Positions 17,357 to 43,973 of a DNA stretch of 43,973 nucleotides are shown one piece after another (positions within the stretch are counted from its first letter, which is position 1; each line of letters begins with the position of its first letter). The notes below the pieces were generated by a model. It did not search any database. It worked only from the letters and a program-made list of their open reading frames with translations, and was not told where the DNA came from. The translations under genes were made by a program, and so were the position numbers. The DNA is taken from positions 1 through 43,973 of the forward strand of contig JAURXS010000052.1 in NCBI GenBank assembly GCA_030654305.1, written 5' to 3'. This DNA comes from a bacterium. GTDB taxonomy: Bacteria > Krumholzibacteriota > Krumholzibacteriia > LZORAL124-64-63.

Positions 17357-17415
17357 CATCCGGCCGCCTGCCGGATCCGACGCAAGGATCGACGCAGACA
17401 AGGAGCGACGCAGTC

Positions 17416-35326: not shown

Positions 35327-35384
35327 GTCGCACTCCCGGTGCCATCATGCACCCGCCACCGTTCCCCGAGCCGGAGACACCCCG

Positions 35385-36286
35385 TTGCGCGATCCGCGGA
35401 CACCGCCCGTTCCCTTCGGCTACCGCACCAGCGCGTTCTGGTACGCGCTCGGGGCGCGCGTGGCCGTCGCGGCGCCCCGCGACGTCGCCCGCTGGGCGGC
35501 GCGGCGGATCGGGGACTGGTACGCGTGGACCCACCCCGGCGTGCGGCGGACCGTCGGGCATCACTTGGCGCTGGCCGACCAGGCCCGCGGCGACGGCCGG
35601 CGGACCCCGGTGCAGCGACCCTTCCGCGAGTTCAGCGAGACGGTCGCGGACTTCCTGCGCCTGGCCGGCGGGCGCGGCGACGAGATCGTCGCGGAGATCG
35701 AGGTCGCCGGTCTCGAACACCTGCAGCGTTGCCAGATGGAAGGCTCCGGCGTCGTCTTCCTCAGCGCCCACATGGGCAACTGGGAGGCGGTCGGCGCCTG
35801 GGGCGCCTCGCGGGGCCTGCGCGTGCTGGGCGTGGCGCGCCCGCACCCGAGCCCGCGCGTGGACGAGTTCTTCAACGCGGCCCGCCGGCGCTTCGGGCTC
35901 GAGGTGTTCCCGCTGGGCGGCGACCCGCGCCTGCTCGCCGAGCACCTGCAGAGCGGGGGCGTGGTGGCCATCGTCGGCGATCGGGATTTCACCGGGCGCG
36001 GCGCCGAAGCCGCCTTCCTGGGCGCCCGCACCCGGCTGCCGCAGGGCTGGATCCGCCTGGCCCAGCAGACCGGCGCCTGGATCCTGCCGGGCCGCCACCG
36101 CCGGCTGGTCGAGGACGGGCGCCACGTCTCGCGGCTGGAATTCCGGGAGCCTTGGCGCGTCGCGCCCGGCGAAGCGGGCGCCGCCGAAGCCTTCGCCCGC
36201 GGCTCGGCGTTCCTCGAGGAACTGGTCCGCGAGGATCCCGGCGCCTGGACCGTCTTCGATCCCGTGCTGCAGGGAGGTCGCCCGCG

Positions 36287-38669: not shown

Positions 38670-39407
38670 CTAGGTCAACCCGATCAGACGCCGCCAGCCG
38701 CGTCGGCCCGGCAGCGGGACCTCGTGCTCCACGCGCCGCACCTCGCCATCCGGCTCCAGCAGCGCGTAGCCCTGCCAGCTCTGGGGCAGCCCGAGGTAAT
38801 GGATCCCGTCGCGCTCGCTCTCGTGCCAGCGGTGGTGGTGCCCGAAGACCCACCAGCGCGGCCGCAGGTGCGCCGCCACGCGCGCCAGGCCCGCCACGCC
38901 GGGCGGGCCCAGGTGGGCGAGCGCGACCTCGCTGTTCACCCCGATGTCCGTGGGGCAGTCGTGGCTGATCACGAGGTCGATGCTGCCGGGAGCGTGGGCC
39001 AGGCAGGCGTCGATGTCCCGCTCGCGGATCTCGCTGCCGCACGGGGTCGACCAGGCGTCCATGTAGCGCGCGCCGCCGACGCACAGGCAGTTCCAGTCGC
39101 CCAGACTCAACCGGGAGCCGCGGGGCAGGTGGGTGACGACGTCCGCGTAGTCGCGCACCAGCCGCTCGAACGACGCGAAGTCCTCGTGGTTGCCCTCGAT
39201 GAAGGCCGTGGGGTGCGCGAACCGGAACCCGCCGCGTCGGAAGTGGCGGTGCAGTTCGGCGCCGAACAGGCCGAAGTCCCCCAGCACCAGCACCCGCTCG
39301 ACGGGACGGCCCCGCGATTCCTGGGCGTGGGCCGCCTGCGCGTCGACGACTCCGTAGTGCGCGTGGACGTCGCTGAGCAGCAGGATCGAGCCGTCACCGG
39401 TCGACAT
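38670..39407 (-). CDS. calcineurin-like metallophosphoesterase
   Basis: 245 aa carrying the full MPP motif set: LLSDVHAH (DxH), LGDFG (GD), EGNHED (GNHE), ISHDCP, and FGHHHRWH (GHxH). The ATG at 39407 lies 5 nt after the upstream stop (TGAgcgcgATG). This is only the 3' third of ORF-track entry 38670..41345. Confidence 0.8.
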
Positions 39408-39412
39408 CGCGC

Positions 39413-41494
39413 TCAGCCCCCCCGGAACTCGTGGTCCAGCATGGTCTGCAGCGCCTTGATGTCGGCGAACACGGACTTCAGCGTCCGGCGCGTCGCCGGG
39501 TCGAGCGCGTCCGGCTCGAGCCGGTTGTCGGGTTCGAGACGATCGAGGATCCGCCGGGACTGGTGCTGCAGCCGCAGGTCCATCAGGAAGCGGTACGACT
39601 CGGCGAGTTCGGCGGCGGTCTCGGCGCGCAGCTTGCCCGCCGACGCGAGGGCGGCCAACCGGTCCGCCGTGGCGGTGGCGGCGACCCCGTGCTGCAGGGC
39701 GCGCAGCCGCACGTAATCGACGATCTGCGCCATGACGCCCTTGACGTCGAAGGTGGCGCGGTCCGCCTCGCCCTTCTCCAGCGCGAAGCCGCCGAACGCG
39801 TTGAGCGGCGGCTCGTACTGCAGCACGCTGCGCGCGAGCAGGTGCAGGAAGCGGGGCTCGCTCGCGATCTCGTCCGCCAGGTCGGCGCGCAGCGCGGCGA
39901 CCAGCCCGTCCTGTCCGAGTCCGTCCTGCCGGAGGGCGCCGCGGAAATCGAAGAAGATCTTCGCCTGCAGCAGGTCCTCGGCCTCCAGGGTGTGGATCCA
40001 GCCCGCGAACGTCCGGCGCCAGCCGGAGAGCGACTGGCAGCAGCGGGGCTCCCCGGACATGATGCCGCCCCGGCAATAGGGGTAGCCCGCCGCATCCAGG
40101 ATCGTGGAGAGCCGCGTCCCCAGGCGCAGGAAATAGTCGCGCGCCGCCGCCTCCGCGCCGGCGTCCAGGTCCGGGTAGATGATGGCGTGGTCCTGGTCCG
40201 CCAGCAGGCTCACCTCGGCGCGACCGAGGCTCCCCATGAGCATGACGTCGAAGTCCGACGGCGGCGGCCCCAGTTCGGCGATCGCCAGTTCGACGCCCTT
40301 GCGCACGGCCGTGTCCGCGTTCTGCGACAGCATGCGGCTGACCTGCAGGGCGTCGGCCCCGTGGCTCATCATCAGGCCGGCCATGGTCGCCAGACGCCGG
40401 TTCGCCGCCGCCAGGTCGTCGCTGCTTCGCGCCGCATGCAGATCGAGCTCGTGCGGCTGCTCCAGGCGGGTGGCCACGGCCATGCAACCGGGCCTGCCCT
40501 GCAGCATCACGCGCGACAGCGACAGCATGACCCGCACGACGCCGCCGCCGCGCGTGACCAGTTCGGCTTCGTAGCGGATGGGTGCGCGGTCCCCGTCGGC
40601 CACCGCCCGCCAGTGCCGGCGCCCGCTCTCCATTTCGGCGGCCGTCGCGCGCACCAGCCGCCCGGCGTCCAGGCGCGCGAACTCCTCGCGGCTGTAACCG
40701 ACCAGCTTCAACATGCTCGCGTTGGCGAAGAGCCCCTCGTCGCCCACGGACATGAAGATCGACTCGCCGGCCGACTCCACCAGCGAGCGGTACTTCTCCT
40801 CGGAGATCTTCAGGGCGGCGGCCGTGAGCAGGCGGCCGCGCTCCGCCTGGAAGCTGGTGCGCAGCAGGAAGACCAGCAGCAGCGTCACCGCGGCGAGGAT
40901 CAGCACGGCCGCCGCCTGCAGGCGCCCGGCCACCGCCGCCACCTCGCGGTCGACGTCGTCGGTGTAGACGCCGGTGCCGATGATCCAGCCCCAGGGTGCG
41001 AAGCCCTTGACGTAGGACAGCTTGGGCACGATGCGCGCGGGGTCGTCCTTCCACTGCCACATGTAGTCGACGTAGCCGGCGCCCTCGCGGCGCACGACGT
41101 CGACCATCGCGACGAAGATCAGCTTGCCGTGCGGGTCGGCGAAGGCGGACAGGTCGCCGCCCTCGAGGTCGGGGCGGTAGGGGTGGACGATCATCCGCGG
41201 CTGGAGGTCGTTGATCCAGAAGTAGTCCTTGCCCTCCTGGCCGTAGTGGAGGCTGCGGACCTGCAGGATGGCGGCGGCCTGGGCCTGCTCGCGCGAGAGG
41301 CGGCCGGCGCGCTCTTCGGCCTCGTAGCGGGCCAGGATGTTCCACGACGATTCGGTCAGCTCTCGGATCATGAGCCGCTTCTGGTCCATCACCGCGCGGC
41401 CCAGGGTGGGCAGGAAGTGGAAGAAGACCACGCCGGAAAAGAGGCCGACGGCCAAGAGGGCGGGCAGGCCCGTGCGCAGCGCAAGACGTTTCAT
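39413..41494 (-). CDS. membrane sensor protein: TM, periplasmic single-Cache domain, TM, PAS-like segment, then DUF294 nucleotidyltransferase plus DUF294_C domain
   Basis: 693 aa. TM1 is aa 8-30. The Cache signature is YFWINDLQPRMIVHPYRPDLEG...PKLSYVKGFAPWGWIIGTGVY (aa 90-177). TM2 is aa 194-214. The PAS-like segment is aa 225-335. The Pol-beta NTase motif is MGSLGRAEVSLLADQDHAIIY (aa 420-440, nt 40175..40237). The long helical C-terminus is typical of DUF294_C. Confidence 0.85.
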   Translation of the reverse strand: MKRLALRTGLPALLAVGLFSGVVFFHFLPTLGRAVMDQKRLMIRELTESSWNILARYEAEERAGRLSREQAQAAAILQVRSLHYGQEGKDYFWINDLQPRMIVHPYRPDLEGGDLSAFADPHGKLIFVAMVDVVRREGAGYVDYMWQWKDDPARIVPKLSYVKGFAPWGWIIGTGVYTDDVDREVAAVAGRLQAAAVLILAAVTLLLVFLLRTSFQAERGRLLTAAALKISEEKYRSLVESAGESIFMSVGDEGLFANASMLKLVGYSREEFARLDAGRLVRATAAEMESGRRHWRAVADGDRAPIRYEAELVTRGGGVVRVMLSLSRVMLQGRPGCMAVATRLEQPHELDLHAARSSDDLAAANRRLATMAGLMMSHGADALQVSRMLSQNADTAVRKGVELAIAELGPPPSDFDVMLMGSLGRAEVSLLADQDHAIIYPDLDAGAEAAARDYFLRLGTRLSTILDAAGYPYCRGGIMSGEPRCCQSLSGWRRTFAGWIHTLEAEDLLQAKIFFDFRGALRQDGLGQDGLVAALRADLADEIASEPRFLHLLARSVLQYEPPLNAFGGFALEKGEADRATFDVKGVMAQIVDYVRLRALQHGVAATATADRLAALASAGKLRAETAAELAESYRFLMDLRLQHQSRRILDRLEPDNRLEPDALDPATRRTLKSVFADIKALQTMLDHEFRGG

Positions 41495-41525
41495 TCTAGA
41501 CGCTTCATTCGAGACGCTTCATCGT
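41484..41525 (-). repeat. three tandem 14-nt units, each containing ATGAARCGTCT (the start of the sensor gene)
   Basis: Minus strand reads CGATGAAGCGTCTC / GAATGAAGCGTCTA / GAATGAAACGTCTT. Plus-strand units are at 41512..41525, 41498..41511 and 41484..41497. Confidence 0.9.
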
Positions 41526-41548
41526 CGTGACCTGCCCTCCGTCTTCAT
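41491..41548 (-). promoter_or_regulatory. relay of three mini-ORFs (MKTEGRSRR*, MKRLE*, MKRLE*) whose TGA stops each overlap the next ATG, ending on the sensor-gene ATG
   Basis: ATGs are at 41548, 41522, 41508 and 41494 (minus strand). The stops at 41521..41519, 41507..41505 and 41493..41491 form ATGA overlaps. The only SD-like element (GGAGGG, 41535..41540) precedes the second ATG. The main ATG has none. Confidence 0.45.
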
Positions 41549-41570
41549 GCCGATGCCCCCGCGCCGGAGC

Positions 41571-42629
41571 CTACAGCAGGAACTGCACGCCCGCCAGCAA
41601 CTGGTTGGGGCTGTCGCCGGTGCTGAATTCCACCCCGTAGCGCAGCTTGTGCTTCAGGCGGTAGTAGTGCAGCCCCGCCGTCAGGTTCGACATCCGGTCG
41701 CCGGAGCCGGGATCGACGACGGAGACCTTGCCCGTCGCCTGCACGCGGTCGCGGCGCAGCCCCGACTCGACGAACCAGGTGCTGCCGTGGAAGTTGAGGT
41801 TGTCCCAGTCGTACCAGCCGGCGTTGAGCGTGCCGAACATCCCGCCCGCGGCGAAGCCGGACTGCAGGTCGACCACGAAGGCCCGGCTGTCGATCGTCCA
41901 GCCGGGATCGGCGGCCGACACGTAGCCGGCGCGGTTGGCCCGTCTCTGGTAGTCGATCCCCGTGCCCAGCAGCAGGTAGGGATCCCCGCCCAGGCGCTCC
42001 TGCCCGTGGAACCAGGCCGTGGGCACGGCGCCGACGGCCGCGTACTCCAGGTGCCCGGTGAAGCGCGGCGCCGCCTCGGGATTCTTCGTGGTCCCGACTT
42101 CGTAGCCGTCGAAGACGCCCGCGCGGTAGGCGAACGACCCGCCGTACGAGCCGTGCAGCATCAGGCCCTGGTCGCGCCAGACGAAGGTGTTGGCCAGCTT
42201 GATCACCTCGGCGTTGTAGTCCAGCCCCAGCAGGCTGCCGGCCGAGGAAGTGTTCTCGAAGGACAGCGGCAGCAGGATCAGCCCCACCTCCAGCCAGTGG
42301 TCCCCGCTCAGGCGCAGGTCGACGAAGATGTCCTGCAGGTCGGTGGACACGCCGCTCACGGCGCCGTTCCCGGCGTTGTCGTTGTCCGTCTCGGCGAAGA
42401 CCTTCACGCCGTCGGCGATCTGGCCGCTGAAGATCAACCGCCCCCGGCGCAGGTACAGGTCGCGGTCGGCCGCGGCGCCCTCCACCGTCACGGCGTGGAA
42501 CTGGCCCAGCAGGCTGAACTGCAGGTTGGCGCCGTCGTCGAAGTCCCAGCGGGGGCCGGCCAGCGCGGGCGCGGCCGCGACCGTCAACACCACCAGCGCC
42601 GCCCGCAGCAGCAAGTCCGTCCTGCTCAT
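41571..42629 (-). CDS. outer-membrane porin, probably of the OprO/OprP (anion-selective) type
   Basis: The ATG at 42629 is preceded by AAGGAGAG. Signal peptide MSRTDLLLRAALVVLTVAAAPALA. Amphipathic beta-strand pattern throughout. YLRRGRLIFSGQI...VKVFAETDN resembles the RRARL..G motif of phosphate-selective porins. Family assignment is by eye. Confidence 0.72.
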   Translation of the reverse strand: MSRTDLLLRAALVVLTVAAAPALAGPRWDFDDGANLQFSLLGQFHAVTVEGAAADRDLYLRRGRLIFSGQIADGVKVFAETDNDNAGNGAVSGVSTDLQDIFVDLRLSGDHWLEVGLILLPLSFENTSSAGSLLGLDYNAEVIKLANTFVWRDQGLMLHGSYGGSFAYRAGVFDGYEVGTTKNPEAAPRFTGHLEYAAVGAVPTAWFHGQERLGGDPYLLLGTGIDYQRRANRAGYVSAADPGWTIDSRAFVVDLQSGFAAGGMFGTLNAGWYDWDNLNFHGSTWFVESGLRRDRVQATGKVSVVDPGSGDRMSNLTAGLHYYRLKHKLRYGVEFSTGDSPNQLLAGVQFLL

Positions 42630-42681: not shown

Positions 42682-42699
42682 TCATTCAAGCCTGACATT

Positions 42700-43973
42700 T
42701 CAAGTCTGGACGGCGACCCGCCGGTTCTTCGTCACCAGCGACACCACGATTAGCGCCAGGAAGCTCAGCGGGATCGAGATGATCCCCGGCTGCCCCAGCG
42801 GGTGCCACGCCTGTTCGGCGGTAAGCCCGTACGGGCCCGCGAACATCTCCGGCCCGGTCAGGATGATCCCGAGCGAGGAGACGATGCCCACGATGATCGA
42901 GGCCACGATGCCCGCCGCGGTGGTCCGCTTCCAGAACAGGAGCATCAGGATGGCCGGCAGGTTGGCCGACGCCGCCACGGCGAAGGCCCAGCCGACCAGG
43001 AAGCTCACGTTGACCCCGCGGAAGACGATGCCCAGCACGATCGCCACGATGCCCACGGCGAAGGCCGCCAGCTTGCCGGCGCGCACCTTCTGACGGTCGG
43101 TCAGCTCCATGCGGCCGAAGCGGTCCATCAGGTCGTGGGCCACCGCGCCCGAGGCGGCCACGATCAGGCCGGCGACGGTGCCCAGCACGGTCGCGAACGC
43201 GATGGCCGAGATGATGGCGAACAGCACGCCGCCGAAGGACATCGCCAGCAGCGGCGCCGACATGTTGTTGTCGGCCGGGTTCACCGTGCCGTTGACCGCC
43301 GCGCCGAGGCCCAGGAACAGGGTCAGGACGTAGAAGAAACCGATCGAGGCGATGGCCACGATCGTCGACTTGCGGGCGCAGGCCGGGCTCGGCACGGTGT
43401 AGTAGCGGATCAGGATGTGCGGCAGCGCCGCGGTCCCGAAGAACAGGGCCATCATCAGCGACACGAAGTTGAGCTTCTCGGTCGTGGTGTGCACCTTGAA
43501 CTTCACGCCCGGCTTCATCTCGTCGGTGCCCGAGACGGTCTTCGGCGAGTAGACCGCGTACTTGGCGCCCTTCTCGTCGGTCACGGCCTGCTTCTGCCAC
43601 TGCTCGACCCGGGTGTCGGGGTGGGTCAGGTGCGCGAGGAAGGCCAGCGGGCCCACCGCGCCGGTGCCGGCGGCGGCTTCCGCGTCGCTCATCCCGCCGA
43701 TCCGCCGCAGGCGCCCGACGGGCTCCAGCACGCCGCCCGCCACGCCGTTGACAACCCCGTCGCTGGTCCACTGCGCACGCCAGAGCGTGCCGTCGGCCTC
43801 GCGCTTCCACCAGGTGGTCGCCCCGTCGCGGACGTACTTCTGCAGGCTGCCGGTCGTGTGCAGCAGCGCGTACCCCTGCTCCTGGAGCTGGCTCTCGGTG
43901 GCCTGCACGGTCATCTCGCCGCCGGGGGCGCCGCCGTCGAGCCCCACGGGCTCGGTGCTCAGGCCGCGCGCGA
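42700..43973 (-). CDS. actP: cation/acetate symporter ActP (SSF family), C-terminal ~424 codons; 5' end outside window
   Basis: FGTAALPHILIRYYTVPSPACARKS matches the ActP signature (GTAGLPHILMRFFTV..AR.ARKS), followed by about 7 TM helices. The frame stays open to the window edge, so the GTG at 43947 in the ORF track is not the real start. Confidence 0.88.
   Translation of the reverse strand, partial: ARGLSTEPVGLDGGAPGGEMTVQATESQLQEQGYALLHTTGSLQKYVRDGATTWWKREADGTLWRAQWTSDGVVNGVAGGVLEPVGRLRRIGGMSDAEAAAGTGAVGPLAFLAHLTHPDTRVEQWQKQAVTDEKGAKYAVYSPKTVSGTDEMKPGVKFKVHTTTEKLNFVSLMMALFFGTAALPHILIRYYTVPSPACARKSTIVAIASIGFFYVLTLFLGLGAAVNGTVNPADNNMSAPLLAMSFGGVLFAIISAIAFATVLGTVAGLIVAASGAVAHDLMDRFGRMELTDRQKVRAGKLAAFAVGIVAIVLGIVFRGVNVSFLVGWAFAVAASANLPAILMLLFWKRTTAAGIVASIIVGIVSSLGIILTGPEMFAGPYGLTAEQAWHPLGQPGIISIPLSFLALIVVSLVTKNRRVAVQT

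Follow-up and report, generated by a model that had tools for sequence, protein, structure and literature searches.

At the start of a gene for a signal-sensing protein on the minus strand of contig JAURXS010000052.1, from an uncultured member of the Krumholzibacteriota, lies a tandem array of three 14-nt units, each beginning with a copy of the gene's own start codon and together preceded by a short leader open reading frame (ORF). The whole stretch of 43,973 nt that was analysed is referred to here as the window, and the gene as the sensor gene. Comparison with related genomes leaves us confident that the array represents a heritable and recurrent expansion of a start cassette, located between a conserved, coupled leader ORF and a protein that is unchanged by it; this is a statement about origin and architecture alone. 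More tentatively, and with substantial reservations, we infer from the sequence that the locus is a leader-ORF coupling device lengthened by self-terminating copies of the cassette, through which ribosomes would pass by serial termination and reinitiation.

Tandem start cassettes and their copy number

Read on the minus strand from the TAG of the upstream porin-like ORF (41573–41571), the sequence is gctccggcgcgggggcatcggc ATGAAGACGGAGGGCAGGTCACGACG ATGAAGCGTCTCGA ATGAAGCGTCTAGA ATGAAACGTCTTGCG and contains four ATG codons, at positions 41548, 41522, 41508 and 41494. The first opens the leader ORF (ATGAAGACGGAGGGCAGGTCACGACGA followed by TGA, encoding MKTEGRSRR*), the second and third each encode MKRLE*, and the fourth is the first codon of the 693-amino-acid (aa) sensor ORF (39413–41494). 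At all three junctions (41522, 41508 and 41494) the stop codon overlaps the next start codon in the sequence ATGA, as it likewise does in the related loci L083, L085 and L088; the positions, peptides and overlaps in the window are exactly those that a first-pass annotation had given. The start cassette is 14 nt long, comprising ATGAAGCGTCTYG plus one further base. Extra cassette 1 spans 41505–41522 (unit 41509–41522, ATGAAGCGTCTCGA), its mini-ORF ending in a TGA that overlaps ATG 41508, and extra cassette 2 spans 41491–41508 (unit 41495–41508, ATGAAGCGTCTAGA), its mini-ORF ending in a TGA that overlaps ATG 41494 and lacking a Shine-Dalgarno (SD) sequence. The third cassette (ATGAAACGTCTTGC) is the sensor start itself, also without an SD. 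The three units differ from one another at 1–3 positions, and the 28 nt of the two extra units are 46% G+C in a genome of 72% G+C. Tandem Repeats Finder reports the array (41484–41522) with a period of 14, 2.8 copies, 92% match and a score of 64, the maximum in the window; as a score of at least 64 was reached in 10 of 50 Markov-2 simulations of the window, the score alone is within chance, and it is the comparison with relatives that establishes a true duplication.

That comparison is informative at several levels. First, each of the 20 orthologues taken from species-representative genomes carries just one ATGAAGCG.CT start, and the four closest of these (86–94% aa identity) align to the window with a clean 28-nt gap, equal to two 14-nt units. 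Two metagenome contigs found by the leader pattern are single-copy too, so that the gap is present in the six closest relatives. Second, L083, an independent Logan assembly from another run and sample, encodes a 693-aa sensor of 96% aa identity and has three units (GGAGGcatcggcATGAAGACGGCGGGCAGGTCACGACG / ATGAAGCGATTCGA / ATGAAGCGTCTAGA / ATGAAGCGCCTTGCG) with substitutions of its own. Because L083 carries the same three units, the array is real and inherited, and it is older than the split between the window lineage and L083, which are separated by a synonymous divergence (dS) of 0.087. The triplication described in the first-pass annotation thus stands as an insertion of two units, though not as identical copies, and its proviso that the repeat might be an artefact of assembly fails on the L083 array. 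Third, intermediate states exist. L085 has two units (ATGAGGCGATGCGG / ATGAAGCGCC), the extra one encoding MRRCG*, and L088 and L089, which are two separate assemblies (ENA and Logan) of one lineage, also have two (ATGAGACGTCGCGT / ATGAAGCGCC), the extra one encoding MRRRV*. L090 has the start ATGAGGCGTCAGCGTCTT, with six additional nt in frame and encoding MRRQRL; a 6-nt duplication would explain it, as would an 8-nt deletion in a former two-unit array. Among the 12 related lineages of the porin-linked clade, all aligned across the leader and start region, there is thus one unit in seven, one unit plus 6 in-frame nt in one, two units in two, and three units in two.

Copy number does not track the gene tree. 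In neighbour-joining analysis of the sensor coding sequence (CDS), bootstrap values are 97% for (L086, L088), 98% for (L001, L081, L083, L085, window) and 77% for (window, L083), and lineages with one and with several units are interleaved. At least 2–3 independent gains, or one old gain with at least four losses, or recombinational transfer, would be needed to account for this distribution. The extra units of L085 and L088 have the derived bases G5 and G11 in common, which weakly favours a common origin for them. Nearest neighbours are mosaic along the sensor gene, L085 being nearest to L083 in the first 600 nt and nearest to L001 at 400–1400, which indicates recombination among the window, L001, L081, L083 and L085 lineages and makes gains and losses of the cassette harder to count. 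The indels are nonetheless strongly concentrated: at least four events fall in the 14-nt cassette stretch, none in the 26-nt leader ORF, one (of 1 nt) in the 22-nt spacer, and one (of 15 nt) in the approximately 2.07-kb CDS. Indels thus recur at the start cassette, which is a hotspot for them.

The form of the array follows from simple arithmetic. Since 14 is of the form 3n+2 and the unit begins with ATGA, each unit opens a five-codon frame whose TGA is supplied by bases 2–4 of the next unit. That a stop overlaps a start in every case, as the first-pass annotation had noted, is therefore automatic for the extra units and no series of independent coincidences, and for any added copy the chain from leader to sensor is formally unbroken and the protein unchanged. 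A duplication with a period of 3n extends the protein in frame (as in L090), and one of 3n+1 would run an out-of-frame ORF over the sensor start; the observed events all fall in the two harmless classes, 3n and 3n+2. The ATGA and the exact 14-nt length are kept in 6 of 6 extra units from four lineages, with variation at positions 5, 6, 9, 10, 11, 12 and 14. Four tandem duplications spanning a likely start codon turned up when 677 kb of sequence (all fetched loci and the window) was scanned, and the window's is the largest of them; the other three have periods of 8–9 nt, and the one in L073 (ATGATAAT / ATGATAAA) likewise forms an ATGA-overlapping mini-ORF. A literature search for tandem duplications at bacterial start codons gave mitochondrial or plant papers only.

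The NCBI annotation of the window's sensor record (P0001) begins at the same ATG 41494, the N-terminal sequence MKRLALR agrees with all orthologues, and ORF and N-terminus are identical in all copy-number states, so that a change in copy number does not switch frame. The ratio of nonsynonymous to synonymous divergence (dN/dS) between the window and L083 is 0.21, similar to the 0.20–0.25 of single-unit pairs. Ordinary purifying selection has therefore acted since the array arose, and the third, SD-less ATG must be used.

Frameshifting or N-terminal fusion from the upstream ATGs was considered and ruled out, as every unit's frame ends at the next TGA, and TCTAGA/TCGA sites were ruled out as cloning scars because the array is found in independent metagenomes. 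In the three-unit state the leader ORF and the sensor share a frame (54 nt apart) and are parted only by the TGA at 41521–41519, readthrough of which would yield a sensor with an N-terminal extension. In L085 there is a new in-frame ATG 6 nt ahead of the true start and within the extra unit (L085 140–160), and the JGI gene call begins MRMKRL; both this arrangement and that of L090 (1501–1525) resemble 'repairs' of the array.

Leader ORF, Shine-Dalgarno signals and a helix across the start

The leader ORF, or upstream ORF 1 (uORF1), occupies 41519–41548 on the minus strand and consists of nine codons (MKTEGRSRR) and the TGA that overlaps ATG 41522. In all 12 lineages it has an ATG start (GTG in L001), a fixed length of 26 nt, and a TGA overlapping the next ATG. 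In 10 of the 12 a GGAGG-type SD (GGAGG or GGGAGG) lies 7 nt ahead of it; in the window the corresponding sequence is GGGGG (41556–41560), for which a duplex energy of −8.6 kcal/mol was computed, and in L001 it is GGTGA. With a ribosome-binding site of its own at a conserved position, uORF1 has a feature by which regulatory leader peptides are recognised. It begins 22 nt past the porin stop and has its own SD, so that the hand-on of ribosomes from the porin gene, which the first-pass annotation had invoked, is unnecessary. More distant orthologues (L005–L020) have no such leader ORF and instead have GGAG 5–7 nt ahead of the sensor start.

The peptide itself is not conserved. The lineages encode MKTEGRSRR, MKSAGRLPR, MRSTVRSRR, MMSAGRPQR and others, and neither a conserved peptide nor an arrest motif of the kind found in attenuation- or arrest-type leader peptides is present in uORF1 across lineages. 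The leader evolves at approximately the synonymous rate, with pairwise differences of 0.15–0.17 compared to 0.12–0.16 at fourfold sites. As judged from these comparisons, the leader ORF is kept as a set of signals (SD, start, frame and the block GGCGGGCAGG) and not as a peptide. Arrest motifs of the macrolide-type pentapeptide or +X+ kind were also considered for the mini-ORFs and ruled out, as the motifs vary between lineages.

A second potential SD lies within uORF1, a GGAGG at 41536–41540 that is located 13 nt ahead of ATG 41522, as first reported (duplex −10.0 kcal/mol, spacer about 12 nt). It is private to the window, the relatives having GGCGG. With an assumed canonical anti-SD, the duplex energies for the four starts are −8.6 (41548), −10.0 (41522), −0.6 (41508) and −0.6 (41494) kcal/mol, compared with −6.1 to −11.6 kcal/mol for the other coupled starts of the window, bearing out the earlier statement that the main ATG has no SD. 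Coupled junctions are common here: the first-pass annotation had put them at about a dozen, and 14 candidate NTGA junctions were counted between coding-looking ORFs in the window (filtered on G+C at each codon position), 11 of them with a GGAG-type motif. ATG 41494 is exceptional among coupled starts in having no SD. The window carries two private substitutions in this region, one changing the leader SD from GGAGG to GGGGG and the other, inside the leader and in the 5′ arm of the helix described below, changing GGCGG to GGAGG; the strongest SD thereby lies about 20 nt further downstream, and L083, with the same array, retains the ancestral state.

The start is also enclosed by an inverted repeat. 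Its 5′ arm (41531–41545, minus strand) lies within codons 2–6 of uORF1, and its 3′ arm (41454–41468, minus strand; CCTGCCCGCCCTCTT) corresponds to sensor codons 9–14; an inverted-repeat search identified the arms as 15 nt with 87% complementarity. The leader block GGCGGGCAGG is the perfect complement of CCTGCCCGCC (sensor codons 9–12), and the core GG(C)GGGCAGG pairs with CCTGCCCGCC without a mismatch in L002, L003 and L081. A perfect inverted repeat of 10–12 nt across the start has a probability of about 0.002–0.012 in simulations, and at eleven other coupled starts in the window the corresponding length is 4–8 nt. Over the 12 lineages, 95.8% of the cells of a 12-pair helix are paired, compared to 31–57% with a slid partner. 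The two extra units, 28 nt in all, lie within the loop of the helix and enlarge it from 34 to 62 nt, and ATG 41494 is the most accessible of the four ATGs (mean unpaired probability 0.47). The ancestral design of the clade thus looks like an SD, a leader ORF, an ATGA and the sensor, in which a helix covers the start until translation of the leader would open it, and this putative design agrees with both the unfolding and the reinitiation models of coupling (PMC12548453).

Interpretations of the array

We therefore regard the array as a tolerated, heritable and recurrently generated lengthening of a translational-coupling device, and not as a purpose-built element. In the mechanism that we propose, ribosomes would load at the SD of the leader ORF, or in the window perhaps instead at the internal GGAGG 13 nt ahead of ATG 41522. 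Translation of the leader would melt the helix, and the SD-less true start would then be reached either by two extra rounds of termination and reinitiation or by short-range post-termination scanning. Such a relay would most likely attenuate synthesis of the sensor without abolishing it, and the few ribosomes passing all three legs may suit a protein of low abundance. Duplications of the 3n+2/ATGA class would survive as the decoy frame ends at once. The relay that the first-pass annotation had proposed is conserved in its first leg, with the nine-codon uORF and its ATGA present in all 12 lineages and an SD in 10; the two extra legs lack an SD, and the efficiency of the relay is therefore doubtful.

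Several observations weigh against this mechanism. First, the two extra legs (41508 and 41494) have no SD, compared with 11 of the 14 coupled starts that do. In Escherichia coli, removal of the SD ended reinitiation altogether in one of five gene pairs and lowered it by 60–90% in three others (PMC6728339). A series of three reinitiations could therefore let very few ribosomes through, although the gene is under normal selection. Second, compensatory changes are absent from the helix, its pairing is weaker in the window, L001 and L004, and folding z-scores for the leaders of the window and its relatives are unremarkable (−1.2 to +1.3). Third, the insert that enlarges the loop is AT-rich for this genome and ATG 41494 is accessible, which makes direct, SD-independent initiation a real alternative. 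Fourth, retention of ATGA in the extra units is only suggestive as evidence of selection: the chance of ATGA escaping change is about 0.035 by a hand calculation, C(10,7)/C(14,7), that ignores shared ancestry and has no phylogenetic correction. Finally, the array differs between the window and L083 at 4 of 42 nt, which compared to the dS of 0.087 suggests that it evolves at roughly the neutral, or synonymous, rate.

The strongest competing explanation, which we consider a serious possibility if a somewhat improbable one, is that the array is simply a tolerated, near-neutral indel hotspot, with 30S subunits binding directly and independently of an SD to the enlarged, AU-richer and unstructured loop, and with the mini-ORFs as by-products or mild decoys. 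The duplications would be mutational accidents, perhaps due to slippage of replication or a template switch within the loop of the GC-rich hairpin, and would last because one copy of the ORF stays intact; the insert may uncouple the sensor from the leader ORF, relieve the helix, or raise expression. The accessibility of ATG 41494, the 46% G+C of the insert and the near-synonymous rate of change in the array are all as this explanation would have them, and the E. coli bioBF pair illustrates that de novo initiation is possible with a very weak SD (PMC6728339). The window lineage also carries three lineage-specific tandem duplications, of about 13, 28 and 15 nt, inside a 5-kb interval, each at a site where selection allows it (at a stop, at a start and in frame), as well as a 16-nt duplication of an SD region ahead of ATG 17415. 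Tandem repeats are about twice as dense in the window as in the loci of its relatives, and clearly denser than in simulations. Against this explanation, the same cassette has changed copy number in the same phase at least 2–3 times while the adjoining 48-nt leader is nearly free of indels, and every extra unit retains ATGA and the exact 14-nt length. GGAG-type SDs are moreover usual for the genes of the window genome and its orthologues, and the apparent repair to an upstream in-frame start (the L085 ATG at −6 and MRRQRL in L090) suggests that the arrangement is not free of cost.

A more ambitious interpretation, which we think unlikely, is that the 14-nt cassette is a self-propagating relay module that keeps the ATGA chain whole at any copy number and whose copies are gained and lost so as to set the dosage of the sensor through serial SD-less termination-reinitiation, a reversible and heritable translational rheostat that leaves the protein untouched. 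A contingency-locus reading, in which frequent slipped-strand gain and loss within populations sets dosage at one, two or three units, is in our judgement a shade less probable still. Copy numbers of 1, 2 and 3 are non-monophyletic among close lineages, units 1 and 2 of the window contain perfect direct repeats of 11–13 nt, and the G5/G11 shared by the extra units of L085 and L088 may mean that the array is old and has been lost several times. In classical contingency loci the short units are perfect and numerous, and here they are few and imperfect. Three units have been stable over a dS of 0.087 (window and L083), the same number is found in both assemblies of the L088 lineage, and recombination between lineages could give the patchy distribution without frequent slippage. 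The slipped-strand locus of the first-pass annotation is borne out insofar as copy number varies between species-level lineages without a change in protein, but the locus is not hypervariable and its units are imperfect; a slow copy-number rheostat is possible and a classical hypervariable contingency locus is unlikely.

An artefact of assembly or sequencing is a negligible prospect: although the sequence comes from a contig of a metagenome-assembled genome (MAG) and exact-protein lookups of the sensor, porin and phosphoesterase, alternative starts included, initially gave no second copy of the genome, the copies differ mutually at 1–3 positions, L083 comes from an independent run and shows three units with substitutions not seen in the window, arrays of two units recur between an ENA and a Logan assembly, and de Bruijn assemblers, as is generally known, collapse repeats shorter than k and do not expand them.

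Surrounding genes, known systems and implications

The sensor gene (39413–41494, minus strand) encodes, by Pfam matches, sCache_2, a transmembrane segment, PAS, a DUF294 nucleotidyltransferase and DUF294_C, and the product is thus a signal-sensing nucleotidyltransferase and not a histidine kinase. Upstream on the same strand is a gene for a Porin_O_P-like outer-membrane protein (41571–42629; PF07396, E=1.2e-5, a weak match). Its probable start, inferred by alignment with relatives, is ATG 42629 with AAGGAG ahead of it, and the mechanical ORF reaches 42698; an SSF-family symporter is also located upstream of the sensor. A metallophosphoesterase gene (38670–39407, minus strand; assigned from its translation and from Metallophos Pfam matches on orthologues) begins 6 nt past the sensor stop and is the last in the cluster. 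The orthologous cluster in relatives has the order DUF485, SSF symporter, porin, sensor, metallophosphoesterase. A promoter and terminator scan of the porin–sensor interval found no terminator-like or sigma-70-like site, with a promoter model that may not be that of the phylum, and an Rfam scan of the leader gave a single chance match (flavi_FSE, E=4.7) and no known RNA family. The nearest genomes are uncultured Krumholzibacteriota-like MAGs with varied labels. The orthologous loci of the clade have been deposited inconsistently, as Fibrobacter sp., Polyangiaceae, Latescibacterota, Fibrobacteraceae and Paceibacterota (L001, L011–L013, L015–L017 and L023), and the taxonomic names attached to these MAGs are unreliable.

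Other duplications are present in the window. Alignment with relatives reveals an in-frame tandem duplication of 15 nt within the sensor gene (39905–39934, minus strand; CTCCGGCAGGACGGA / CTCGGACAGGACGGG, encoding LRQDG and LGQDG), which is placed between DUF294 and DUF294_C and is common only to L083 (GQNGQ and GQDVL), the other relatives having one copy. At 42682–42711 (minus strand) a net insertion of 13 nt resembles a diverged 14-nt tandem duplication at the stop of the SSF symporter gene (GTCCAGACTTGAAAT / GTCAGGCTTGAATGA); it is found only in the window among the lineages covering the region, and creates the spurious upstream porin ATG at 42698. At 17383–17413 (plus strand) a 16-nt duplication of an SD region (CAAGGATCGACGCAGA / CAAGGAGCGACGCAGT, then C and the ATG at 17415) is a second tandem duplication in the window at a translation initiation region. 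The second-highest repeat score in the window, 63, belongs to a tandem repeat with a period of 23 and 2.3 copies at 35359–35414 (plus strand).

The locus combines two known things, translational coupling mediated by an upstream ORF and copy-number change in a tandem repeat. Termination-reinitiation at 4-nt overlaps is experimentally established (PMC6728339), and the unfolding and scanning models of coupling have been reviewed (PMC12548453). As in the ATGA/GTGA-coupled gene pairs of E. coli and Haloferax (PMC6728339; PMC12548453), each stop codon of the array overlaps the next start on the same strand with zero spacing. In contrast to those pairs, the upstream partners are mini-ORFs of nine and five codons, three of them are chained, and the coupling is predicted. 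The SD that typically, if not obligatorily, precedes the downstream start in termination-reinitiation pairs is absent at 41508 and 41494, so that the last two junctions of the array differ from 11 of the 14 gene junctions of the same genome. Another parallel is found in Mycobacterium tuberculosis, also a bacterium of high G+C content, in which 4-nt overlaps of the NUGA type between one short leader ORF and another, or between a leader ORF and the main ORF, are common (bioRxiv 10.1101/2022.06.01.494293). The M. tuberculosis leader ORFs are translated, with termination-reinitiation as the proposed mechanism, whereas those of the window, which belongs to another phylum, are known as sequence; and the chained ORFs of the window, unlike those of M. 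tuberculosis, are tandem copies of the gene's own start cassette, in numbers that vary between sister lineages. Chains of this kind are thus already known, and the unusual aspects here are that the links are duplicates of the start of the gene they precede and that their number is not constant among sister lineages.

As in coupling by RNA unfolding (MS2 coat–lysis and E. coli rpmI–rplT; PMC12548453), a putative helix encloses the downstream start and has one arm in the upstream ORF, whose translation would open it. Unlike in those systems, the evidence for the helix is its conservation and improbability, with no covariation and with weakening in 3 of 12 lineages, and the insert shifts the true start 28 nt from the 5′ arm. 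The array also bears comparison with slipped-strand phase-variation loci, in which repeats lie in or before surface genes of Neisseria or Haemophilus. Like them, it is a tandemly repeated sequence at a gene's 5′ end, present in different copy numbers in related lineages; it departs from them in its 14-nt unit, its three or fewer imperfect copies, the absence of an ON/OFF frameshift in the protein, and its stability over substantial divergence. Minigenes and lambda bar-type ORFs, two to five codons long and on which ribosomes can initiate and quickly leave, are similar to the mini-ORFs in size only.

The significance of the array depends on whether the relay operates. If it fails, the locus simply documents well, for an uncultured phylum, how a hotspot of indels can be tolerated where translation starts. 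If it works, the lineages would constitute a natural allelic series in which zero, one or two added ATGA legs without an SD separate an otherwise constant leader ORF from an unchanged protein, and this series could measure the efficiency of SD-less reinitiation and distinguish scanning from unfolding, questions that a 2025 review describes as unresolved (PMC12548453). The locus also illustrates a putative general filter on bacterial indels, in that start-codon duplications with periods other than 3n would survive only with a 3n+2 period and an ATGA cassette, a signature that is searchable genome-wide.

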